In this document: positions 1,055 through 13,990 of the stretch, one piece after another
How positions within the stretch are numbered: position 1 is the stretch's first letter
Layout of the letters: each line of letters begins with the position of its first letter
Virus record (IMG/VR): IMGVR_UViG_2541047853_000004
Strand: one strand, 5' to 3'
Length of the DNA stretch: 32,919 bases
From: a virus
Taxonomy: Duplodnaviria; Heunggongvirae; Uroviricota; Caudoviricetes
Notes under the pieces: model-generated
Seen by the model: only the letters and a program-made list of their open reading frames with translations
Databases searched by the model: none
Told to the model about the DNA's origin: nothing
Program-made: the position numbers and the translations under genes

Positions 1055-1083
1055 AAAAATGCCCTCCAGTGGAGAGCATTTTT
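1055..1083 (-). terminator. candidate intrinsic terminator/attenuator immediately upstream of the int start codon
   Basis: Plus-strand aaaaatgccctcc-agt-ggagagcattttt forms a 13-bp stem with one mismatch, flanked by an A-run and a T-run. On the minus strand the U-run ends directly at the int ATG. Confidence 0.35.
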
Positions 1084-1131
1084 ACTGTATGTATAACCAG
1101 TGTCAATGTATGATGCTTGAGGTTACATACA

Positions 1132-1503
1132 TCATAAGTACCGATATGATTGCGGGGCCGTTATGTTATCACCTAATGAACTTAGATGAAGCGGTTGATC
1201 ATAGATTTTTAGATTGCCAATTTCTATAGCAAAGGCTTTTTCTTTGCTATGAAAATATGAGTCAAAAAATTGTTTGCTGATACCTGCGTATTGGCTTGTT
1301 TTTTCCCATACAATACTTGGCTTGTCTTCTATAACATCTGCAATGTCAAATTCAGCAACAACTTTACCGACAGGCATTGTTGAATAAATAACCACAGATT
1401 TTACATCCGGTTTTTTGAAAATTCCTTTTCGGAATTCAAATTTCTTTGTTCCATTAAGGATTTTTTCTACATGCTCTGGGTTAATTGACAATAATACTTT
1501 CAT
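1132..1503 (-). CDS. ASCH-domain (PUA-like fold) protein
   Basis: ORF beginning MKVLLSINPEHVEKILNGTKKFEFRKG...VVIYSTMPVGKVVAEFDIADVIED matches the ASCH pattern as I recall it. Visibly AT-rich. Preferred start is the internal ATG (rc of 1501-1503); the ORF track extends to a TTG at 1515. Overlaps the upstream gene stop. Confidence 0.6.
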   Translation of the reverse strand: MKVLLSINPEHVEKILNGTKKFEFRKGIFKKPDVKSVVIYSTMPVGKVVAEFDIADVIEDKPSIVWEKTSQYAGISKQFFDSYFHSKEKAFAIEIGNLKIYDQPLHLSSLGDNITAPQSYRYL

Positions 1504-2551
1504 TGACGCCACCAAGTTTAATAATGCTATTAAACTGTTCGTTTGTTAACTTCATGATCCCCCAGTAAGCTCGCGGGGATAATCCTACTTCAGAAATAAG
1601 TTTAGCACGATTTAGTCTTTTGGGCAAAGCAAGGTTATATGTAAAGCTTATAATATATGGGTATTTTTTTGTTCTATAAAAACTTTTAAGCTCAGATTCT
1701 GTAAAAACAGAATATCTAGAACAGTAATTTAGAAATTCTTTCTCTGTAACGAAAGAGTTTATATTTCTAACTTTTTCTACTACACATAAAGAAGTAGCAA
1801 CAGAACGGTAATATGCAGGCCCTTGATTATCGGATGTTCGGTATATAACGATTATATCGTTTGGCTTCATTAATTCAACATCTGACATGCCACAAATATA
1901 TACTTTTCTAATGCTATTTGCATATGATACATCAGCAACAACATCTGGTGACTCTGTAATTAATTTTGAGTCAGGGAATAAACGAGTATGAAATACGGGG
2001 TATATTGAAAGCAAGAATTTATTTTCACTGCCTCTGTTATTAATAAATGGATAATCTGACAGTATATCGCCCGTAAGAGCATTACTATTCATTTCTTTTA
2101 TTAGTACTCGCTCTACACCATTTTCAGATTCTTTTACTCCAATATCTATAAAGCCATAGATTTTGAATAGTCTAATTAAGTAGTCATGTTTTTCAAAAAC
2201 AGTCACATATATATTGTTAGCATTATTATCTAGAGCGTGATCGAATATTTTTTTTAAAAATCGTTGACCACGAAGAGTTCCTTTTGGATTAAATTTAAAT
2301 GTTCCAACTTTTAGATGAATACCATCAGGAATATTTGGTTTTGTATCTTCAATGATACCTACTTCTGTTTTTAGATACAAAAAACCATCAATTTTATTTT
2401 GTTCATCATAAAGGACATATGCATAATCATTTGATTTACATTTAGAATGGAACCAATCAATAAACCCATGAGCATAATCGGATTTTAAAGAGTCAAAAAA
2501 AACATCAGAAAAATCTACTTGATTAAAAGGTATGTATTTTAAGTTTTCCAT
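1481..2551 (-). CDS. hypothetical protein: N-terminal GNAT-like acetyltransferase fold fused to a C-terminal PUA/ASCH-like region
   Basis: 356 aa. N-terminal half has a GNAT-like core (LKVGTFKF...LRGQRFLKKIFDHALDNNANNIYVTVF...LFKIYGF). C-terminal half (IIVIYRTSDNQGPAYYRSVATSLCVVEKV...) resembles a PUA-like barrel. AGGA RBS lies 9 nt upstream; start is 2 bp from the upstream gene stop. Very AT-rich. Domain calls are by eye only. Confidence 0.5.
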   Translation of the reverse strand: MENLKYIPFNQVDFSDVFFDSLKSDYAHGFIDWFHSKCKSNDYAYVLYDEQNKIDGFLYLKTEVGIIEDTKPNIPDGIHLKVGTFKFNPKGTLRGQRFLKKIFDHALDNNANNIYVTVFEKHDYLIRLFKIYGFIDIGVKESENGVERVLIKEMNSNALTGDILSDYPFINNRGSENKFLLSIYPVFHTRLFPDSKLITESPDVVADVSYANSIRKVYICGMSDVELMKPNDIIVIYRTSDNQGPAYYRSVATSLCVVEKVRNINSFVTEKEFLNYCSRYSVFTESELKSFYRTKKYPYIISFTYNLALPKRLNRAKLISEVGLSPRAYWGIMKLTNEQFNSIIKLGGVNESIIVN

Positions 2552-2553
2552 GT

Positions 2554-3336
2554 TTACAATCCTATTTTAAAATCACATGATAAGCAAATTGATTTAGTTT
2601 TAGATATGACGGCGAGTGTTTTCCCCGGAGTTTGACAATTAGTACAAACATTCCAATTTTTCGGTTTTCCATCAATCTTATATATGTTGGCTAAAATATC
2701 ATCTAAAGGAAAAAATGTTTTCATCATGTCTATAATGCTTGCTGCATAGTTTTTCTTTGCCTCGACTAATTTTTGTTCAGGCATGTTTTTATCATTTATC
2801 AAGCAATGAACCAGGTTATTAAGAGGCTCTTGATATATCTCCTCTCGAAAAATTAGAAATGCACTTAAAAAGTCTTTACGTATTTCTTTATTATTACTTT
2901 TACCTAAGTGAATTACTTTATTTCTTTCTTTGCGCAAAATATCATAAATTTCATTAAAGCGCGGTGAAAGATTTCGCCCACTGATACTTTGTGCTATTCT
3001 ATGTAGCTCGGTTGCGTCTAATGTTGAACATTCGAAAAATGATTTGTTTTTATAGCAGTCTTTTACTTCTTTTAAAAGTAAATAAACACTATGCTCAGCA
3101 ATTATAGACTTTAGATATATTTCAGCAGAATTAAAGAGTATTACTAAGCCAGATTGAAAGAAACTCTCTTTTTCGGATATTAAGCGTTTCAGTCGTTGTT
3201 CTTCTGTTTCAGGTTGAGCTGGGGCTTGCAATAACTCAATGTCAGAATAAAAGTGTAAGTAGAATGTTTTAATGAAAAACTCAAGGTTCCTTTTGGCATA
3301 AAGAAGCATCTCTTCATTGTTAGGAAGGTCTGTCAT
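2554..3336 (-). CDS. hypothetical protein with HEPN-type Rx4H motif (RNKVIH) and C-terminal CxxC-x16-CxxC zinc ribbon
   Basis: 260 aa. Motif ILRKERNKVIHLG is encoded at 2908-2925 (rc AGA AAT AAA GTA ATT CAC). C-terminal CTNC...CLSC. Start ATG directly follows the cI stop (TAAATG on the minus strand) with an AAGGA RBS. Very AT-rich. Confidence 0.5.
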   Translation of the reverse strand: MTDLPNNEEMLLYAKRNLEFFIKTFYLHFYSDIELLQAPAQPETEEQRLKRLISEKESFFQSGLVILFNSAEIYLKSIIAEHSVYLLLKEVKDCYKNKSFFECSTLDATELHRIAQSISGRNLSPRFNEIYDILRKERNKVIHLGKSNNKEIRKDFLSAFLIFREEIYQEPLNNLVHCLINDKNMPEQKLVEAKKNYAASIIDMMKTFFPLDDILANIYKIDGKPKNWNVCTNCQTPGKTLAVISKTKSICLSCDFKIGL

Positions 3337-4293
3337 TTAAATATCCTTATATATACCAAAACATTTTGCTATTACATTAATATCCGCTAATAGACATTCA
3401 AAAGTTGTACTTTCATTAGATACTTTTACTTTTGCAATTGGAATTCTGGTTAGATCTCTAACACTAAATTTTCCTTCGATTTCAACTAACCATTTTCCAT
3501 CGGTTACTTCATCAAATGCTTTGTCTGCAAGATATACATTTCCTTCATCTACTATAGATATGGGGTTTTTCACCTTGCTGGGTAACATGGTTTTATCAAA
3601 AGGGAGATAATTTGTATCAAACAACATACCATTTATAACTTTTTTCCGTGTGATAGCAATAATATCGCTCTTAGCGTCTTCAAAGACGGGACCATTACCG
3701 GTTGTTAGCCACATTAATGAAGCTCCGGTTTCAAGTGCGCACTGGATGATCCAATCAGCTGGAAAGGTATCTCTCATGTAACGATTGGCTAATGTGCTTT
3801 TTGAAACACCAATGTGATCCGCTAGAGCTTGCCTTGTCTTAAATCCATAGGCGATAACTATTCGCTCGATTGCCGCTTTTCCTCCTTGATTAACCTCAAT
3901 GAGGCTCTCGTTCTTTCGGTGAGTATTGTTCTCATTTGGGGATTTTGTGTCTAAAGTGAGAGAATGAATCTCCTTACCATCTTTATGGTGGTTCTGTTCT
4001 GTATTATGTGTGACAGCCTCTACTGTGTTATCGGTACCAAATGCCAACCATTCAACCGACACGCCAGTTTCCATGCTGCAGATTATGACCCAGTCGGCAG
4101 GGAAGGTATCACGAGCATATCTGTTCGCCATTGTGCTTTGGGATATCCCTAAGTGGTTACAGAATGCTTGACGTGAAGTGAAGCCATAAGCTTTCAAAAT
4201 TCGGTCAATGACCTGTTGCCCTCCACGATTCTGCATGATTACAGTTTTCATTGCATCATCAACATGGCGAAATGTGATTTTGTGTGTTGACAT
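3337..4293 (-). CDS. cI: immunity repressor, 186 CI-type, with tandemly duplicated N-terminal HTH domain
   Basis: 318 aa. Two consecutive copies of the phage CI-repressor HTH signature (ILKAYGFTSRQAFCNHLGISQSTMANRYARDTFPADWVIICSMETGVSVEWLAFG and IVIAYGFKTRQALADHIGVSKSTLANRYMRDTFPADWIIQCALETGASLMWLTTG), then a C-terminal domain. Divergent from apl/cox. Confidence 0.8.
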   Translation of the reverse strand: MSTHKITFRHVDDAMKTVIMQNRGGQQVIDRILKAYGFTSRQAFCNHLGISQSTMANRYARDTFPADWVIICSMETGVSVEWLAFGTDNTVEAVTHNTEQNHHKDGKEIHSLTLDTKSPNENNTHRKNESLIEVNQGGKAAIERIVIAYGFKTRQALADHIGVSKSTLANRYMRDTFPADWIIQCALETGASLMWLTTGNGPVFEDAKSDIIAITRKKVINGMLFDTNYLPFDKTMLPSKVKNPISIVDEGNVYLADKAFDEVTDGKWLVEIEGKFSVRDLTRIPIAKVKVSNESTTFECLLADINVIAKCFGIYKDI

Positions 4294-4381: not shown

Positions 4382-4603
4382 ATGACCCCTAACATTTCAA
4401 TAACTCTGAATACGCCACACGTCACAATTGAGCGTTATAGCGAACTTACTGGTCTTTCGATCGACACAATCAACGATATGCTGGCTGACGGTCGCATCCC
4501 TCGGCATCGCCTTCGGAAAGACAAGAAAAGAGAAAAGGTGATGATCAACCTTGCTGCCCTTACCGTTGATGCACTTACTGATTGCAATGTTGTATTCAAC
4601 TAG
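4382..4603 (+). CDS. apl: Apl/Cox-type excisionase and transcriptional regulator
   Basis: 73-aa basic protein ([43 protein letters not shown]...) at the position of P2 cox / 186 apl. Internal ATG with AGGAG RBS chosen over the longer track ORF. Confidence 0.6.
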
Positions 4604-4635: not shown

Positions 4636-5145
4636 ATGTTTGATTACCAAGTTTCCAAACATCCACATTTTGATGAAGCCTGTCGTGCATTCGCATTGCG
4701 CCACAACCTAGTGCAACTGGCAGAACGTGCTGGCATGAATGTGCAGATTCTGCGGAACAAGCTGAACCCAGCTCAACCTCATTTATTAACCGCACCAGAA
4801 ATCTGGCTGCTTACCGATCTGACTGAAGATTCAACGCTGGTAGATGGTTTTCTGGCTCAGATTCACTGCCTGCCATGCGTACCGATTAATGAGGTGGCAA
4901 AAGAGAAACTGCCACATTACGTCATGAGTGCAACCGCAGAGATCGGGCGTGTTGCTGCAGGTGCGGTATCTGGCGATGTAAAAACCAGTGCAGGTCGTCG
5001 TGATGCTATCAGCAGCATTAACTCTGTAACACGACTGATGGCGTTGGCTGCTGTTTCATTGCAGGCCCGTTTACAGGCTAACCCTGCGATGGCGAGTGCA
5101 GTTGATACCGTGACTGGCCTCGGTGCTTCATTCGGTTTGCTGTGA
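4636..5145 (+). CDS. cII: CII-type lysogeny-establishment activator (186 CII-like)
   Basis: [49 protein letters not shown] matches my recollection of the 186 CII N-terminal HTH. Position is directly downstream of apl. Confidence 0.75.
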
Positions 5146-6209: not shown

Positions 6210-6436
6210 TGGCTGATGCAATGGATCTCGTACAGCAGCGCGTTGAAGAAGAACGCCAGCGCCATATCCGTGCTGTCCGTGCCAAAACACCGGGCGTGTC
6301 ACGCGTACTTTGCATTGAATGTGAAGCGCCAATTCCGCCAGCACGACGCCGCGCCATTCCGGGAGTGCAGCTTTGCATTACCTGTCAGGAAATCGCAGAA
6401 CTGAAAGGCAAACATTACAACGGAGGTGCTGTATGA
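6209..6436 (+). CDS. TraR/DksA-family C4 zinc-finger protein
   Basis: CIECEAPIPPARRRAIPGVQLCITCQ is the C4 zinc-finger signature of TraR/DksA-like phage proteins. Confidence 0.7.
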   Translation: MADAMDLVQQRVEEERQRHIRAVRAKTPGVSRVLCIECEAPIPPARRRAIPGVQLCITCQEIAELKGKHYNGGAV

Positions 6437-7290
6437 GCACCATCCTGAAATGGGCGGGAAATAAAACCGCCATTATGGCAGAACTGAAAAAATACCTTCC
6501 TGCTGGCCCGCGACTGGTTGAACCTTTCGCGGGTTCCTGTGCAGTGATGATGGAGACGGATTACCCCAGCTATCTGGTTGCGGATATTAATCCTGATTTA
6601 ATCAACCTCTATAAAAAGGTTGCCGCTGATTGTGAATCGTTTATATCTCGCGCCAGAGTTTTATTTGAGAACGCAAACAGGGAGATGGCTTATTACAACA
6701 TAAGGCAGGAGTTTAATTACTCAACTGAAATTACTGATTTCATGAAAGCGGTATATTTCCTGTATCTCAATCGTCACGGTTACCGTGGTTTATGTCGCTA
6801 TAACAAGAGCGGGTATTTCAACATTCCCTACGGTAATTATAAAAATCCGTATTTCCCTGAAAAAGAAATTCGCGCATTTGCAGAGAAAGCCCAGCGGGCA
6901 ACGTTTATCTGCGCGAGCTTTGATGAAACGCTGGCGATGCTGCAGGTGGGGGATGTGGTGTATTGCGATCCGCCGTATGACGGTACGTTTTCCGGCTATC
7001 ACACTGATGGTTTCACTGAAGATGACCAGTATCACCTGGCATCCATTCTTGAACATCGGTCATCAGAAGGACATCCGGTCATTGTTTCTAACAATGACAC
7101 ATCCCTGATTCGTTCGCTGTATCGCAATTTTACTCACCACTATATCAAGGCAAAACGCAGCATCGGCGTGTCAGCTGGCGAGGGTAAATCTGCAACAGAA
7201 ATCATTGCTGTTTCCGGGCCGAGCTGCTGGTTGGGATTTGATCCTTCGCGTGGCGTGGATAGTTCTGCCGTGTACGGAGTGTGTGTATGA
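6433..7290 (+). CDS. DNA adenine methyltransferase (Dam-like, D12 class N6-MTase)
   Basis: [11 protein letters not shown] start, SAM-binding EPFAGS, catalytic DPPY ([12 protein letters not shown]). No adjacent restriction gene seen. ATG overlaps the upstream stop (ATGA). Confidence 0.85.
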
Positions 7291-9701
7291 GTCATGACGA
7301 TATGAACAATTGCAGCGGCTTTAACGAGGCCGCCGCAGCATTTTCATGGAACGGCTCGAAAAAGGCCATTAACCCTTATCTGGACCCGGCGGAAGTTGCG
7401 CCGGAGTCTGCACTTTCAAACCTGATCACTCTGTACGCTGCCGATAACGAGCAGGAACAACTGCGCCGCGAGGCACTGAGTGAGCAGGTCTGGGAGCGTT
7501 ATTTCTTTAATGAATCCCGTGATCCTGTCCAGCGCGAAATGGAGCAGGATAAGCTCATTAGCCGGGCAAAGCTGGCGCATGAGCAGCAGCGTTTTAATCC
7601 GGACATGGTCATTCTGGCGGACGTAAACGCCCAGCCTTCCCATATCAGCAAGCCGCTGATGCAACGTATTGAATACTTCAGCAGCCTGGGCAGGCCAAAG
7701 GCTTATTCCCGCTATTTGCGTGAGACGATTAAGCCATGTCTGGAGCGACTGGATTGTGTACGTGACAGTCAGCTATCTGTTTCTTTCCGTTTTATGGCAA
7801 GCCATCAAGGGCTGGAGGGGCTGCTGATCCTGCCTGAAATGAGCCAGGATCAGGTGAAACGCCTGTCCACCCTGGTAGCAGCGCATATGAGCATGTGTCT
7901 TGAGGACGCTTGTGGTGATTTGTATGCCACCGATGACGTTAAGCCAGAAGAAATCCGCAAGACATGGGAAAAGGTGGCAGCGGAAACCCTGCGTCTGGAT
8001 GTTATCCCGCCTGCGTTTGAGAAACTTCGTCGGAAAAGAAACCGCCGCAAACCAGTGCCCTATGAACTCATCCCGGGTTCGCTGGCGCGTATGTTGTGTG
8101 CCGACTGGTGGTATCGGAAATTATGGAAGATGCGTTGCGAATGGCGGGAAGAGCAGTTGCGTGCTGTCTGCCTGGTCAGCAAAAAAGCATCCCCCTATGT
8201 CAGCTATGAAGCCGTGATGCATAAACGTGAGCAGCGCCGTAAGTCGCTGGAGTTTTTTCGTTCTCATGAACTGGTGAACGAAGACGGCGACACGCTGGAT
8301 ATGGAAGATGTGGTAAACGCCAGCAGCAGCAACCCGGCGCATCGCCGCAATGAGATGATGGCCTGTGTTAAAGGTCTGGAGCTTATCGCGGAAATGCGCG
8401 GTGACTGCGCCGTTTTCTACACCATTACCTGTCCGTCACGTTTCCATTCCACGCTCAATAACGGCAGACCCAACCCGACCTGGAAAAACGCGACGGTAAG
8501 ACAAAGCAGCGATTATCTGGTCGGTATGTTTGCTGCATTTCGTAAGGCGATGCACAAAGCCGGGTTGCGCTGGTATGGCGTGCGGGTGGCTGAGCCGCAT
8601 CACGACGGCACAGTTCACTGGCACCTGTTGTGTTTCATGCGCAAAAAAGACCGCCGCGCCATTACTGCATTGTTGCGTAAGTTTGCTATCCGTGAAGACC
8701 GCGAGGAGCTGGGCAATAACACGGGGCCGCGCTTTAAGTCTGAGCTGATTAACCCGCGCAAAGGAACGCCGACAAGCTACATAGCGAAATACATCAGTAA
8801 GAACATTGACGGGCGTGGTCTGGCTGGCGAGATCAGCAAGGAAACGGGTAAATCTCTTCGTGATAACGCTGAATACGTGAATGCCTGGGCGTCTTTGCAT
8901 CGTGTTCAGCAATTCCGCTTCTTTGGTATTCCGGGGCGTCAGGCTTACCGTGAACTGCGATTGCTGGCTGGTCAGGCGGCAAGGCAGCAGGGTGACAAAA
9001 AAGCAGGTGTGCCGGTACTGGATAACCCGCGCCTTGATGCCATTCTGGCTGCTGCTGATGCTGGTTGTTTTGCCACCTATATCATGAAGCAGGGAGGTGT
9101 ACTGGTTCCCCGTAAATATCACCTCATCAGAACTGCTTATGAAATTAACGAAGAGCCGACCGCCTATGGCGATCACGGTATTCGTATTTATGGCATCTGG
9201 TCACCCATTGCAGAGGGCAAGATCTGCACTCATGCAGTGAAGTGGAAAATGGTTCGTAAGGCCGTTGACGTTCAGGAGGCGGCAGCCGACCAGGGCGCTT
9301 GCGCCCCTTGGACTCGTGGCAATAACTGTCCCCTTGCTGAAAATTTGAACCAACAGGAGAAAGATAAATCAGCTGATGGGGACCCCAGAACGGACATTAC
9401 CAGCATGGATGACAAGGAGTTGCACGATTACCTGCACAGTATGAGCAAAAAAGAGCGCCGGGAACTGGCAGCAAGGTTACGCCTGGTGAAACCGAAACGG
9501 CGTAAAGACTACAAACAGCGAATTACAGACCATCAGCGACTGCAGCTCGTGTATGAGCTGAAGTCCAGAGGATTTGATGGCAGCGAGAAAGAGGTCGATT
9601 TACTCCTTCGCGGAGGCAGTATTCCGTCAGGAGCAGGCCTGCGTATCTTCTATCGGAACCAGCGTTTGCAGGAAGATGATCAGTGGCGGAACCTGTATTA
9701 A
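7287..9701 (+). CDS. A: replication initiation endonuclease, P2 gpA-like (HUH rolling-circle)
   Basis: About 805 aa with HUH motif ([10 protein letters not shown]) and tyrosine motif (YIAKYISKN). Start ATGA overlaps the Dam stop. Confidence 0.85.
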
Positions 9702-9793
9702 TTACGCGGGTTAACAATTCGTGCTCTTAATAATACCAGGCATATCAGGCTGATGAACGTAAAAAAACGTTTTACATCAGTAAGATTATTATA

Positions 9794-9813
9794 TACTGTA
9801 AATATAAACAGTG
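9794..9813 (+). promoter_or_regulatory. LexA (SOS) box
   Basis: TACTGTAAATATAAACAGTG fits CTGT-N8-ACAG with an AT-rich spacer, 42 bp upstream of the ATG at 9855. Confidence 0.7.
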
Positions 9814-9854
9814 GTTATACATACAGTATTGCGTGTGGTGTCATAGGAGGAAAG

Positions 9855-10043
9855 ATGCAGGACTATTTTTTGGAGTCTTTGAAGCTCCAGCGCATTGATT
9901 TTTTTCTTAAGCTTGTAGCGGCTAGTGAGTGTAGTGATGAAGAGAAGGGGCTGGCTCTGCAGTGGGTTTCTGAATTGACTGATGAACTCATGGCAAAAAT
10001 CAGAACCCACGAATACAACCGCTCAATGGATGTCATCAGCTGA
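9855..10043 (+). CDS. small SOS-controlled protein, possible Tum-like antirepressor module
   Basis: 62-aa ORF (MQDYFLESLK...) with AGGAGG RBS at 9845-9850, directly downstream of the LexA box. Function inferred from position only. Confidence 0.45.
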   Translation: MQDYFLESLKLQRIDFFLKLVAASECSDEEKGLALQWVSELTDELMAKIRTHEYNRSMDVIS

Positions 10044-10053
10044 GGTGACTTTT

Positions 10054-10287
10054 ATGCGCATTGAAATAATGATCGATAAAGAGCAGAAGATTAGCCAGTC
10101 TACCCTGGACGCCCTTGAATCCGAGCTTTACCGCAATCTGCGCCCCCTGTATCCCAAAACGGTAATTCGCATTCGCAAAGGTAGCTCTAACGGTGTGGAA
10201 CTAACCGGACTGCAACTGGACGAAGAAAGAAAACAAGTGATGAAAATTATGCAGAAGGTGTGGGAAGACGACAGCTGGCTGCATTAA
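10054..10287 (+). CDS. DinI-family protein
   Basis: 77 aa; MRIEIMIDKEQKISQSTLDALESELYRNLRPLYPKTVIRIRKGSSNGVELTGLQLDEERKQVMKIMQKVWEDDSWLH parallels E. coli DinI as recalled. In the LexA-box operon. Confidence 0.7.
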   Translation: MRIEIMIDKEQKISQSTLDALESELYRNLRPLYPKTVIRIRKGSSNGVELTGLQLDEERKQVMKIMQKVWEDDSWLH

Positions 10288-10422
10288 GAAACGTTGCTGG
10301 CGTCTGAACTTGCTTCTGGCGTCAGCAAGGTTGAACAACGAGCCCTTGCGAGGCGTTAACTCTGTAGTGCATGTCTATGCCGCATGAGATCGCATGATCG
10401 TTTGAGGATCGTTTTTGCTAAG

Positions 10423-10447
10423 GCCCGCCAGAACTGGCGGGCTTTTG
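10423..10447 (+). terminator. rho-independent terminator after the tum/dinI-like operon
   Basis: GCCCGCCAG-AA-CTGGCGGGC perfect 9-bp GC-rich stem followed by TTTTG. Confidence 0.6.
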
Positions 10448-10491
10448 CGTAGATTATGCAGGTGCATGAAAACCACTACATAAAGCGGGCA

Positions 10492-10510
10492 GGCGTGGCG
10501 GGGATACGAG
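10492..10510. other. candidate cos cohesive-end sequence
   Basis: GGCGTGGCGGGGATACGAG; the first 13 nt match my recollection of the 186/P2 cohesive end (GGCG[T/A]GGCGGGGAAAGCA). Location near the terminase-proximal end fits. Recollection not verifiable here. Confidence 0.3.
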
Positions 10511-10599
10511 CGCGCGCTGATGGGGGGCGCAGTGCTTTTGGCATAGTTATGAGGTAGAATTTCAAAATACTTTTTAGCGCTGTTGGAGGTATAGACAAA

Positions 10600-11145
10600 A
10601 TGGACGTTATAACTGGAGTTGCAGAGTTTTTTCGAAAAGTACCTGCAGCATTTCTTGTGGCTATTACATGTGTTTTAGGTCTTATACTTTTTCTGCCAGA
10701 CTCTTTGGCAGTAAAAGTGGCTGTTGATGGCTTTCGTAATGAGTATAGGATTTTTATTGGACCTGCATTTTTACTGTCTGTATCTTATTTAGTTGCAAGA
10801 GTCTATCTCTCTTTCTATGACTTACTTGGTGAAAGGCAGGCTAAGAAGGTACGCACTTCCTACCTTGAGAAGCTAACAGCAGAAGAAAAAGGATATTTAA
10901 AGTCTTATATTACCGAAGGTGTTAATTCACTTATGTGTGGGCCTGAGGATGGGGTCATGGGGGGACTTGTGGCTAAGGGGATTACTTATAGAGCCACCAG
11001 TGTTGGGGATATGATCTACGGTTTTGCTTTCAACTTACAGCCATGGGCGCGTGAACATTTAGAGAAAAATAGTCATTTATTAGATGGGGCTATTGGGCGT
11101 GCAATGACTCCAAGAGAAAAATTAAACTTTAGATTGGGACGCTAA
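10600..11145 (+). CDS. AT-rich accessory membrane protein (two predicted N-terminal TM helices), candidate superinfection-exclusion/abortive-infection protein
   Basis: 181 aa with GGAGG RBS. Hydrophobic segments AAFLVAITCVLGLILFLP and IFIGPAFLLSVSYLVARVYL. Visibly lower G+C than flanking genes. Sits between the A/cos region and Q. Confidence 0.5.
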   Translation: MDVITGVAEFFRKVPAAFLVAITCVLGLILFLPDSLAVKVAVDGFRNEYRIFIGPAFLLSVSYLVARVYLSFYDLLGERQAKKVRTSYLEKLTAEEKGYLKSYITEGVNSLMCGPEDGVMGGLVAKGITYRATSVGDMIYGFAFNLQPWAREHLEKNSHLLDGAIGRAMTPREKLNFRLGR

Positions 11146-11189: not shown

Positions 11190-12224
11190 TTATTCAATGT
11201 CAAATTTATATGGTTCAAAAGAAATAACCTTTTCCCCCAACCACTCATTTAGTTCTTCGAGTCTTTTTTGTAGCGGTATTAACTCATTACGGACAAAGAC
11301 GCGGCTGGCTTTTTCCACATCACCAAAGCCGCCGGTATTGTTGGGAATAATGCCCATCATCTGCGGCGGTACGCGGTGTGCTGCCATCATGTCATCGCGG
11401 CTCACGTTCTTAATGTTCAGAAATTCATCCTTTGCTGCAACCTCAGACAGTGGGATGATCTGGATGCCGTCTTTTTTACCGTTGGGCGAATACATAAACA
11501 GGTTGCGGAAGTTGCCCGGACCTTTGGCGCTTTTCATCGCGTTGCGGAGGTTGTTCACATCCTCCTGGTTCTGCGCGGCGTCAGTCATATACATGATGAA
11601 GCCTGCATGGCTGCCGTTGATGTAATACTTACGGCGGAACAGCGTGGCGGACTCGTTGAGCAGGGCTGACGGAATGGCAGAAAGATAACCGGGCAGGCCG
11701 TAGATCTCCTGATTAATATCCGGTTCCATCAGATGAAAAATGCTGCCTTTCGTGAACTGATACGGCTGGGTTGTCATACCGTATTGCACAAACCAGTAGG
11801 TATCCAGGTCTAATCCGCGTCGGGTGTATTTTGCCAGCGCAGGTTCAAGGGCGATCACTTCACCGAAGCGGTTCGTGCGTTTCTCCAGATAGGCATTGCC
11901 AAATACCAGATAGTCCTGCACAAAACGCGAAAAAGCCTGCTGGCTGAGCAGAGGATGAGGGATATAGGTACTGGTCAGAATGTTACACTTTACTGCAATC
12001 GGGGAACTGTGATGCACGGCAGCGCGGAAGGTGCGCGCCAGTCCGTTAAAGCTGACGGGAGGCTCATACCAGCGGTCCATCTGTACGCATTCCACATAGT
12101 CCAGCAGTTCACGGCGGTCCAGAACAGGAACGGGATCGCCGAAGCTGAATGCTTCGGCTGTAGTTTGACTTTTAAGCTGGATCTGATTCGTCGCCGCAGC
12201 GCGGTTCTTCTTACTCTTTCCCAT
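11190..12224 (-). CDS. Q: portal protein (P2 gpQ-like)
   Basis: 344-aa ORF at the conserved position, leftward and upstream-adjacent to terminase P. Start ATG overlaps the P stop (TGATG). Confidence 0.85.
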   Translation of the reverse strand: MGKSKKNRAAATNQIQLKSQTTAEAFSFGDPVPVLDRRELLDYVECVQMDRWYEPPVSFNGLARTFRAAVHHSSPIAVKCNILTSTYIPHPLLSQQAFSRFVQDYLVFGNAYLEKRTNRFGEVIALEPALAKYTRRGLDLDTYWFVQYGMTTQPYQFTKGSIFHLMEPDINQEIYGLPGYLSAIPSALLNESATLFRRKYYINGSHAGFIMYMTDAAQNQEDVNNLRNAMKSAKGPGNFRNLFMYSPNGKKDGIQIIPLSEVAAKDEFLNIKNVSRDDMMAAHRVPPQMMGIIPNNTGGFGDVEKASRVFVRNELIPLQKRLEELNEWLGEKVISFEPYKFDIE

Positions 12225-13990
12225 CAAAAAATCTCCACAATATTGCTGGTATTGGCGGATTCGCCCTGCAGCGGTTCGTTAAACAGTGCGTGCATCGTTG
12301 CCCAAGCCAGATCGGCGTGGCTGGCTTCTTCGCTGCGGCTGGCTTCATAGGTCGGGCGGTTGCCACTGGCGGTGGTGGCGCGACGGATTGCCATGAATGA
12401 CTGCGCAATGTCGGTGTGCCCGGCGTCAAACTCCAGACGGCGGTGGCTGATAATGTCGTAGGCCTTGAGTACCAGGGCGTTTTTAACGTTGGGGTTGTAG
12501 ACAAACTCCCGGACGGCAGGAAAGAACGCTTTCACGTTCTCATAAACCCCGTGACCAACGCCGGTTGAGTCGATACCGATGTATGTCACGTTGTACTGTT
12601 CAGTCAGTTTTTTGATGGCGTTAGCCTGGGCGCGGAAGTCCATCCCGCGCCACTGGTGACGCTCAAGAATGCGGAACTTACCGCCCGGCACGGCTGGCGG
12701 TGCCACCACCACGCACCCGGCGCTGTCGCCGTTTTGCGTACCTTTTGCCGGGTCATAACCGATCCACACTTCGCGCCAGCCAAACGGGCGCAGGGCCAGT
12801 GCATGAAAGTCGGTCCAGACTTCCCAACTGTCCACCATGCACGCCTGCAGCTCGCTGAGCGGGAACACGGACGCGAGATCGTCAACAAACTCGCACATCA
12901 GCAGGTTCTGGTATTCGTCCGGGCTGTACTCCAAGCGTAGCTGGTCGAGGTCGAACAGGTTACAGCCGCCGCGCACCGCATCTTCCACGGTGACTATCTG
13001 GCGGTATTGCCCGTCTGCGCACAGCAGGCCGGGGGCCAGATTGCTGTGGGACAGGTCGATGTCCACCTTATCGGCTTTGTTGCGCCCACGGTTGAACAGC
13101 GCACCGGACCAGAACGGATAAGCACTGTGTGTCAGGCTGGATGGCGTGGAAAAATAGGTTTGTCGCCATTTTTTGTGAATAGCCATACCGGAAGCCACTT
13201 TGCGCAGCTCCTGGAATTTCGGTATCCAGAAATATTCATCCAGATACAGGTTGCCGTGGTAACTCTGGGCCGTGCGGGCATTGGTGCCGAGGAAATACAG
13301 TGTGGCTCCGTTAGGAAGCACCATCGGATCGCCTTTCAGCTCCACCTCGACTTCTTTGGCGAAGTCGATGATGTACTGTTTAAAGACGTGAGCCTGTGCC
13401 TTACTGGCAGAAAGGAAAATCTGGTTACGTCCGGTAAGCAGGGCGTCAATCAGGGCTTCACGGGCAAAGTAAAAGGTCGCACCGATCTGGCGTGACTTCA
13501 GCAGGTTGCGGATGCGGTTGGTTTTTCCGGCTTCCCACCAGTGGCGCTGGTAGTTGAACATGGAGGAATGGAAGATTTCTTCCAGCTTCTCAATCTGTTC
13601 ATCGGTGAAAACATTCTTTTCCGGCTGACGGCGCGGGCCTTTGTTGCGGTTGGCGACGTTAGGGTTTAAGTCGGCTTCGTTGCCGCCATTGTTAAACTTG
13701 CCGATCCGCGCATGGCGCTCCGACTGGCGCGCCAGCAGGTCAATTTCTTTAAAGTCTTTCCCTTCTTTGTGCTCCTTCATGATGAGCTGGCAGTAGCGTG
13801 CGGCGGTGGTGAGCTGCATCTGATCCAGCGGCCCATAGTCACCCCACTTGTCGCGTTTTTTCCAGCTGTGAACGGTTGCAACTTTCTCGCCCAGCATTTC
13901 AGCAATGCGGGCTACGCGGTATCCCTGAAAGTACAGCAGCATGGCCTGTCGACGGGGATCGAGATCTGCGGGTGTCAGTGTGGTGTTCAT
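12224..13990 (-). CDS. P: terminase large (ATPase) subunit, P2 gpP-like
   Basis: 588-aa ORF, leftward, divergent from the O-N-M capsid operon as in P2/186. Confidence 0.85.
   Translation of the reverse strand: MNTTLTPADLDPRRQAMLLYFQGYRVARIAEMLGEKVATVHSWKKRDKWGDYGPLDQMQLTTAARYCQLIMKEHKEGKDFKEIDLLARQSERHARIGKFNNGGNEADLNPNVANRNKGPRRQPEKNVFTDEQIEKLEEIFHSSMFNYQRHWWEAGKTNRIRNLLKSRQIGATFYFAREALIDALLTGRNQIFLSASKAQAHVFKQYIIDFAKEVEVELKGDPMVLPNGATLYFLGTNARTAQSYHGNLYLDEYFWIPKFQELRKVASGMAIHKKWRQTYFSTPSSLTHSAYPFWSGALFNRGRNKADKVDIDLSHSNLAPGLLCADGQYRQIVTVEDAVRGGCNLFDLDQLRLEYSPDEYQNLLMCEFVDDLASVFPLSELQACMVDSWEVWTDFHALALRPFGWREVWIGYDPAKGTQNGDSAGCVVVAPPAVPGGKFRILERHQWRGMDFRAQANAIKKLTEQYNVTYIGIDSTGVGHGVYENVKAFFPAVREFVYNPNVKNALVLKAYDIISHRRLEFDAGHTDIAQSFMAIRRATTASGNRPTYEASRSEEASHADLAWATMHALFNEPLQGESANTSNIVEIF

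Follow-up and report, generated by a model that had tools for sequence, protein, structure and literature searches.

A split tumA/tumB module downstream of replication gene A that very probably ties induction of a Fels-2/186-like prophage to the host SOS response

The question raised by positions 9794-10287 of the DNA analysed here (the window, a stretch of 32,919 nucleotides) is why a LexA box followed by two small genes should stand directly behind the replication gene of a P2/186-like prophage. A sequence-only reading of this DNA had proposed that the element couples prophage induction to the SOS response of the host, and homology, together with published experiments on the prophage DuoHS of Escherichia coli HS, supports this proposal. 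The region is very probably the SOS-induction module of a Fels-2/186-like prophage, present in a form in which tum is split into two genes, tumA and tumB. The module is already known, and near-identical copies of it have been studied by experiment.

The window is a P2/186-like, more precisely a Fels-2/186-like (Peduoviridae), prophage. On the minus strand are found int (1-1053), three cargo genes (1132-3336) and cI (3337-4293), which encodes an immunity repressor of the 186 family with a length of 318 amino acids, made up of two tandem HTH and a CI C-terminal domain, and is the presumed target of TumA. These are followed on the plus strand by a putative Apl/Cox-like ORF (about 4385-4603; read by eye and with no Pfam match), a 186-type CII (4636-5145; Phage_CP76), a Dam-like methylase within the ORF at 6373-7290 and replication gene A (7281-9701; Pfam Phage_GPA, E = 3.2e-128). 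The tumA/tumB module (9855-10287, plus strand) lies directly downstream of gene A and is followed by a gene of the SieB family on the same strand (10600-11145), while ORFs resembling portal and terminase genes, recognized by eye only, occupy 11190-13990 on the minus strand. This placing of the module directly after gene A is shared with phages 186, PSP3, Fels-2 and DuoHS. The unit had been likened to the LexA-repressed tum gene that follows the replication gene of 186, and it does occupy the position that p95 and tum hold in that phage.

LexA box 1 (9794-9813, unstranded; TACTGTAAATATAAACAGTG) is positioned so that its left half also serves as the -10 hexamer of the tum promoter. It had been described as a perfect LexA box, which is true of the CTGT-N8-ACAG core, intact here and with no other instance in the 32.9-kb window, and not of the full 20-mer, which has three mismatches to the palindromic consensus TACTGTATATATATACAGTA. 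A loose core of 8 bases turns up easily by itself, at least one instance of it occurring in 38 of 100 shuffles; a site with three mismatches to the consensus was reached in none of the 100. Scoring with a LexA matrix, a check that had been suggested for this site, gave a heterology index (HI) of 4.5, a value within the 0.8-9.2 spanned by the sites used for training, the best value in 30 shuffled windows being 8.1; the matrix was built from 20 known E. coli LexA sites, and these and all other HI values in this work are approximate. With a unique core, a score typical of the training sites and shuffles that fall short of it, the proposed LexA operator can be regarded as real. Between the end of the box and the ATG of ORF1 (tumA) lie 41 nt. 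Its sequence is identical in Fels-2 and in E. coli HS DuoHS, and a box is also present at the equivalent place in phages 186, PSP3, ENT90 and ESSI-2 and in Yersinia phages. Phage P2, from which the element was said to be missing, indeed carries orf91, tin and old after gene A as well as a different small repressor, C, and no LexA-like site in this region of P2 is better than HI 14.8.

The promoter on which this operator would act consists of a -35 hexamer TTTACA (9771-9776, plus strand) with a conserved A-tract just before it, a spacer of 17 nt and the -10 hexamer TACTGT (9794-9799), for which TATACT at 9792-9797 is an alternative; the LexA box at 9794-9813 overlaps the promoter at TACTGT. A consensus promoter scan of 9600-10700 reported none, and the tum -10 fits the consensus at only three of six positions; the promoter was deduced instead from conservation and from comparison with p95 as annotated in phage 186. 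TTTACA is kept across 33 distinct promoter versions and the box is conserved as well, with a spacer between the two that varies freely.

A second LexA-like box (9809-9828, unstranded; CAGTGGTTATACATACAGTA) overlaps the first by 5 bp, the sequence CAGTG being common to both. It scores HI 7.5 and has GTG instead of CTG in one half-site, the left. The right half of this box, ACAGT, is found at a fixed offset of +15 in 21 of 33 related loci despite the changing spacer. The resulting 35-nt double site aligns to double operators located 40-85 nt upstream of colicin-like and bacteriocin genes, and approximately 800 plasmid records, mostly of small and mobilizable plasmids, were matched by the tum operator query, typically over some 42 nt at 84-86% identity. 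The double sites of colicin genes have been described as being bound by two LexA dimers (PMC2994835). The tum operator is probably likewise double and would hold two LexA dimers on its predicted boxes. Only one box is present in phages 186 and PSP3 and in relatives further away, with no second overlapping box below HI 9 in PSP3.

The two-gene unit read from the sequence at 9855-10043 and 10054-10287 was found to be as described for both ORFs. ORF1 (tumA; 9855-10043, plus strand) encodes 62 amino acids and is preceded by the ribosome binding site (RBS) AGGAGG at 9845-9850. A 96-amino-acid ORF beginning at 9753 was considered as the gene and dismissed, as it starts upstream of the promoter and operator and the relatives measure about 62 amino acids with an AGGAGG RBS. 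BLASTP of ORF1 against 186 Tum gave no alignment, even at E = 100, and ORF1 was found to belong to no Pfam family and to have no match in PADLOC. Using a profile made from the N-terminal group of 186 Tum, ORF1 was the sole match among 585 stop-to-stop segments of the window (E = 3.2e-5), and hhalign paired its residues 2-44 with residues 2-44 of Tum at 96.5% probability. In addition, phrog_698 and phrog_8554 match both ORF1 and 186 Tum, one Yersinia phage ORF was matched by both proteins when these served as tblastn queries, and the small ORFs of ESSI-2, Yersinia phages and ENT90 form a graded series between the two. On the strength of these profiles, which were built from few sequences, ORF1 is a homologue of the N-terminal (antirepressor) part of 186 Tum. 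The variable columns within the tumA ORF number 32, 20 and 57 at codon positions one, two and three, respectively, most of them thus being at the third.

ORF2 (tumB; 10054-10287, plus strand) encodes a protein of 77 amino acids, and its RBS, GAGGTG (10042-10047), overlaps the stop codon of tumA. This protein, which had been called clearly DinI-like, belongs to the DinI family: it exceeds the curated threshold of Pfam DinI (PF06183; E = 6.6e-23, 81.3 bits against a cut-off of 24.2), resembles the structure of E. coli DinI over residues 1-75 (1GHH; E = 2.7e-6) and matches phrog_189. It shares 41% identity with residues 71-145 of 186 Tum, in agreement with the statement of the sequence-only reading that Tum has a DinI-like part. 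Comparison of both ORFs with Tum and DinI, as the sequence-only reading had advised, was positive for both, by way of profiles for ORF1 and of this identity for ORF2. The DinI-like protein is probably an accessory one that acts by binding to RecA filaments, adjusting how strong or how long the SOS signal is, a role suggested by family membership only. A weak hairpin at 10032-10049, flagged by the terminator scan and covering the stop codon of tumA and the RBS of dinI, is not significant (-9 kcal/mol, z-score -1.1) and gives no ground for an attenuator or a coupling element.

The unit had also been said to end at a strong terminator. A stable hairpin does lie directly after the dinI stop codon (10290-10332, plus strand; -23.5 kcal/mol, z-score -4.8); with no U-tract and with GGUUGAA next to it, it is no canonical intrinsic terminator. 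What stands of the claim is found about 135 nt downstream, at approximately 10420-10450 on the same strand, where a G+C-rich GGCCCGCCAG/CUGGCGGGC stem followed by UUUU (-23.4 kcal/mol, z-score -4.7) forms a canonical intrinsic terminator that was missed by the terminator scan. The transcript likely ends there. A search of Rfam with 9600-10700 returned nothing relevant, including no known RNA in the spacer at 10288-10450.

Of 5426 complete E. coli genomes, 1143 contain an 801-bp region of this locus, several of them as an exact copy, and the region is shared by numerous phages of Klebsiella and Salmonella. A single search of species-representative genomes, with one protein as query, yielded 33 related loci from Escherichia, Citrobacter, Enterobacter, Klebsiella, Serratia, Pantoea, Erwinia, Tatumella and others. 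A LexA box (HI of 7.0 or lower) occurs 40-97 nt upstream of the tumA homologue in 31 of these. The dinI gene is full-length in 17, partial in three and absent from 13, and it is absent too from ENT90, ESSI-2 and the Yersinia phages; in these 13 loci and these phages alike, the LexA box and the small ORF are both present. Because dinI is so often missing, the LexA box and the small ORF are seen as the core of the module, with DinI as an accessory that is optional in the wider family. Judged from these relatives, the antirepressor would be the small ORF, tumA, and not the DinI-like gene. The 62-amino-acid product, as yet a "hypothetical protein", should accordingly be annotated as TumA, antirepressor, and the product of the downstream gene as the DinI-like TumB.

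Window CI contains two matches to Phage_CI_repr (E = 9.6e-58) and one to Phage_CI_C (E = 6.7e-31), and Peptidase_S24 was not found in it by Pfam; it is a CI of the 186 family without an autocleavage domain. As the repressor has no S24 peptidase domain, SOS induction must go through an antirepressor, and no route from SOS to induction other than TumA is apparent; RecA-mediated autocleavage of CI, considered as another route, is ruled out by the same absence. In the undamaged lysogen, LexA would sit on the operator at 9794-9828, which overlaps the -10 region, and keep the promoter shut, with two LexA dimers presumably placed on boxes that have CAGTG in common. Upon DNA damage, activated RecA would promote the self-cleavage of LexA and the tum promoter would fire, giving a transcript that encodes TumA (62 amino acids) and the DinI-like protein (77 amino acids) and that ends probably near 10450. 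TumA would then bind the 186-type CI (3337-4293) and block its binding to operators, as may be expected from phage 186, so that the early lytic promoter is released and lytic growth can follow. The DinI-like protein would play its accessory part on RecA filaments.

Much of this scheme has experimental counterparts in other phages. It has been described that deletion of tum (ECHS_RS04495) in E. coli HS, or introduction of lexA(Ind-), abolished both the lysis induced by mitomycin C and the production of DuoHS virions (PMC12055606); in the DuoHS record, ECHS_RS04495 is the counterpart of the 62-amino-acid ORF. The mitomycin C experiment that had been named as a check on the proposed role of the element has thus been published for a prophage with a near-identical module, where loss of tum or an uninducible LexA blocks induction. 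The deletion demonstrates that tumA is necessary, and bears neither on its sufficiency nor on dinI. In strain LT2, a lexA null mutation is lethal owing to Fels-2, according to work cited in PMC8072944 and PMC3121763. The tum gene of Fels-2 and of PSP3 is split by a stop codon, and the antirepressor activity has been attributed to the upstream gene in PSP3 (PMC3121763). Tum of phage 186 is a LexA-controlled inhibitor of CI (PMC7708051), and it both binds CI and is needed for SOS-dependent induction according to citations in PMC7708051 and PMC3121763. A literature search for TumA/TumB under these names returned only irrelevant papers.

The binding of TumA to window CI would follow from the example of phage 186. 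Window CI is 36% identical to 186 CI and 47% identical to DuoHS CI, and it carries an HTH in addition to the single one present in DuoHS CI. It is therefore worth considering that the module is intact and uncoupled in this prophage, TumA failing to recognize a CI with tandem HTH, and that the prophage is non-inducible or induced otherwise. Such a reading could draw on the low identity with DuoHS CI, which falls to 32% in the C-terminal domain, and on a related locus (L010) in which an identical TumA (100%) is accompanied by a CI that has a single HTH and only about 50% identity to that of the window. Against this, the HTH adjacent to the C-terminal domain is 73% identical between window and DuoHS CI, so that a conserved target surface exists; PSP3 has a CI with tandem HTH together with a tumA annotated for UV induction; antirepressors that act on several repressors have been documented in Salmonella prophages (PMC3121763); and both the module and cI are intact, with the 801-bp region being preserved exactly in several complete genomes. 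Uncoupling is accordingly very unlikely, and TumA acting on the resident CI is the preferred reading. More generally, TumA is 98-100% identical among prophages whose CI repressors are about 47-50% identical to window CI and have a single HTH. That a near-invariant TumA coexists with CI proteins that differ by at least 50% and have one or two HTH suggests that it recognizes the conserved HTH and could act across immunity types.

Still less probable is that the unit is an SOS-regulated moron cassette whose DinI-like product acts on host RecA, with the small ORF as an unrelated or non-functional leader and with induction independent of it: ORF2 is a clear DinI, ORF1 escapes both Pfam and BLASTP against Tum, and prophages commonly carry dinI homologues under LexA control (PMC3121763, PMC8072944), but it is the small ORF that is conserved and dinI that is dispensed with in 13 of the 33 loci and in ENT90, ESSI-2 and the Yersinia phages, ORF1 has the substitution pattern of a coding sequence as well as profile homology to the N-terminus of Tum, and deletion of a 98%-identical gene abolishes the induction of DuoHS (PMC12055606).

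The SOS-induction module is not the only place in the window where a LexA site was predicted. A putative LexA-controlled int promoter was identified at 1078-1106 on the minus strand, with a -35 hexamer TTGACA (1101-1106) and a -10 hexamer AAAAAT (1078-1083), whose 17-nt spacer is filled by a LexA box (1083-1102; TACTGTATGTATAACCAGTG). With HI 3.8, this is the best site in the window. A terminator-like hairpin follows at 1055-1083 on the same strand (-16.2 kcal/mol, z-score -5.3), and then the ATG of int. The box is identical in DuoHS and in L010, and two further loci, L019 and L042, have retained it as CACTGTTCAAACATACAGTT (HI 6.8) with a different hairpin in the same place. Approximately 1100 E. 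coli genomes share positions 950-1113 and diverge just past the -35 hexamer. Control of this int promoter by LexA is putative and was predicted from the sequence. The literature searched contained nothing specific on a LexA-controlled P2-like int promoter or on a double box at tum, and no description of either the double operator or the int box.

Taken together, the double operator of tumA and the box in the int promoter would amount to three predicted LexA sites by which SOS is wired into the Fels-2/DuoHS clade, where 186 has one, and would provide tight repression and an SOS-gated integrase. This interpretation, together with the suggestion that TumA recognizes the conserved HTH and could act across immunity types, is tentative, and its chances appear slightly below even. 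If true, the double operator would repress tumA very tightly, so that induction comes late and only in some of the cells. A terminator would shield the dedicated int promoter from the variable defence cargo upstream, and the supply of integrase for excision would in addition come under SOS control. The module accounts for the induction by DNA damage, including damage of the kind caused by quinolone-type antibiotics, of a widespread family of E. coli prophages. Its detection here adds annotation and not discovery, since this module was already known from genetic dissection in DuoHS and by inference in Fels-2, PSP3 and 186. The double operator, the LexA box at int and the occurrence of one TumA with many types of CI are modest leads that could refine models of the tightness and coherence of SOS control in prophages.

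Among known systems, the closest are DuoHS (ECHS_RS04495 and ECHS_RS04500) and Fels-2 (STM2728 and STM2726.1). Alignment of 9702-10330 with these two prophages shows a mean column identity of 96%, which is higher within the module, and TumA is identical to ECHS_RS04495 and to STM2728 at 61 of 62 residues. In both, the module is positioned after gene A as it is here, and the promoter, both LexA boxes and the RBSs are as in the window, except that box 2 of Fels-2 differs at two spacer bases. Divergence sets in immediately past the dinI stop codon: hypothetical genes follow dinI in Fels-2 and HS, whereas the window has a non-coding stretch and the gene of the SieB family. The repressor also differs, window CI having two HTH and only the partial identity to DuoHS CI given above.

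PSP3 resembles the window in the arrangement of its module, a tumA of 60 amino acids being followed by a dinI-like tumB, and in possessing a CI with tandem HTH (286 amino acids). Its tumA is annotated as "similar to 5' end 186 tum; UV induction of prophage" and its tumB as dinI-like. It differs in having one strong LexA box upstream (HI 0.9) and a very divergent TumA, with 14% identity to window TumA in alignment. The module of the window is of the split tumA/tumB form found in PSP3 and Fels-2 and not of the fused form of 186.

Phage 186 is alike in that a LexA box lies over the -10 hexamer TACTGT downstream of gene A, in that the N-terminal part of Tum corresponds to TumA and its C-terminal part is DinI-like, and in that the CI to be targeted is of the same family. 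Its annotated p95 promoter consists of TTCACA, 18 nt and TACTGT, with the left end of the LexA box serving as the -10 hexamer, as in the window promoter. In contrast to the window, 186 makes both parts as one fused protein of 146 amino acids with internal starts; it has only one LexA box and only one HTH in its CI, and orf97 is found downstream.

More distant parallels are offered by two other groups of LexA-controlled genes. The Gifsy prophages carry LexA-controlled operons in which a dinI homologue shares its transcript with a small antirepressor (GfoA, GftA) that inactivates a repressor not open to cleavage (PMC3121763). Unlike in the window, dinI comes first in these operons, the phages are lambdoid and the repressor is of another family. 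The operators of the colicin and bacteriocin genes of Col plasmids share with that of tum the two 20-bp boxes with a common CAGTG, and colicins, like the tum product, are lethal to the cell that produces them; the colicin-type arrangement, overlapping 20-bp LexA boxes in front of a producer-lethal gene, is thus present at tum, whereas the downstream genes and the promoter spacing of the colicin and bacteriocin systems are different.

The promoter of tumA, the gene of the 62-aa antirepressor TumA (9855-10043), carries a LexA box at 9794-9813, and a second LexA-like box, CAGTGGTTATACATACAGTA, was identified at 9809-9828 that has 5 bp in common with the first. Its heterology index (HI) is 7.5; the scoring matrix was built from 20 E. 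coli LexA sites (these score 0.8-9.2), and its values are approximate. The two boxes together form a putative double operator, ~85% identical to those that Col plasmids carry in front of their colicin and bacteriocin genes. The second box is kept in 21 of the 33 related loci found by querying species-representative genomes with TumA, whereas 186 and PSP3 lack such an overlapping box.

The strongest candidate LexA box of the window (HI 3.8) is located upstream of int on the minus strand (1083-1102), where it is flanked by a perfect TTGACA and by AAAAAT (region 1055-1106, minus strand). It lies directly upstream of a terminator-like hairpin, which is followed by the int start codon. The same allele of int is accompanied by the conserved box in E. 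coli HS as well as in other genera, which have a different hairpin at this position. This arrangement suggests that the int promoter is SOS-controlled and insulated from the cargo upstream. That cargo, between int and cI, is a block of three minus-strand genes (1132-3336): an ASCH-domain gene (1132-1515) and a second gene (1481-2551) matching PDC-M11B (E = 4.9e-48) and PDC-M11A (E = 2.4e-130), respectively, of a PADLOC candidate defence system, and a third (2554-3336) with only a weak match to DUF3644. The block is present in only ~30 of 1100 E. coli genomes carrying the same int.

Similarity of the window to Fels-2 and to the E. coli HS prophage DuoHS stops exactly at the stop codon of the DinI-like gene dinI; the site of the SieB-family superinfection-exclusion gene downstream of the tumA-dinI module (10600-11145; PF14163, E = 4.5e-25) is therefore a variable cargo slot. 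This gene occupies the same position as 186 orf97 and P2 tin/old. Between the dinI stop codon and a canonical terminator are ~130 nt of non-coding sequence (10288-10420), opening with a very stable hairpin that has no U-tract (10290-10332); an Rfam search of this stretch returned no match.

Labels of the TumA gene in public records are uninformative or misleading: a 100% identical 62-aa copy (Klebsiella phage ST11-OXA245phi3.1, MK416009.1) bears the name 'levan regulatory domain protein' in a single record, most others listing a 'hypothetical protein'.

TumA is 98-100% identical in two related prophage loci (L010 and L003), while their partner CI proteins are only ~47-50% identical to that of the window. 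Judged from these sequences, the antirepressor does not appear to co-vary with immunity type; its target may be the conserved HTH domain, or TumA may be active across immunity groups. The CI repressor of the window (318 aa; 3337-4293, minus strand) has a pair of Phage_CI_repr HTH domains in tandem, which share 60% identity and precede the CI C-terminal domain. The CI proteins of 186 and DuoHS have a single HTH domain, whereas PSP3 CI (286 aa) shares the tandem layout.
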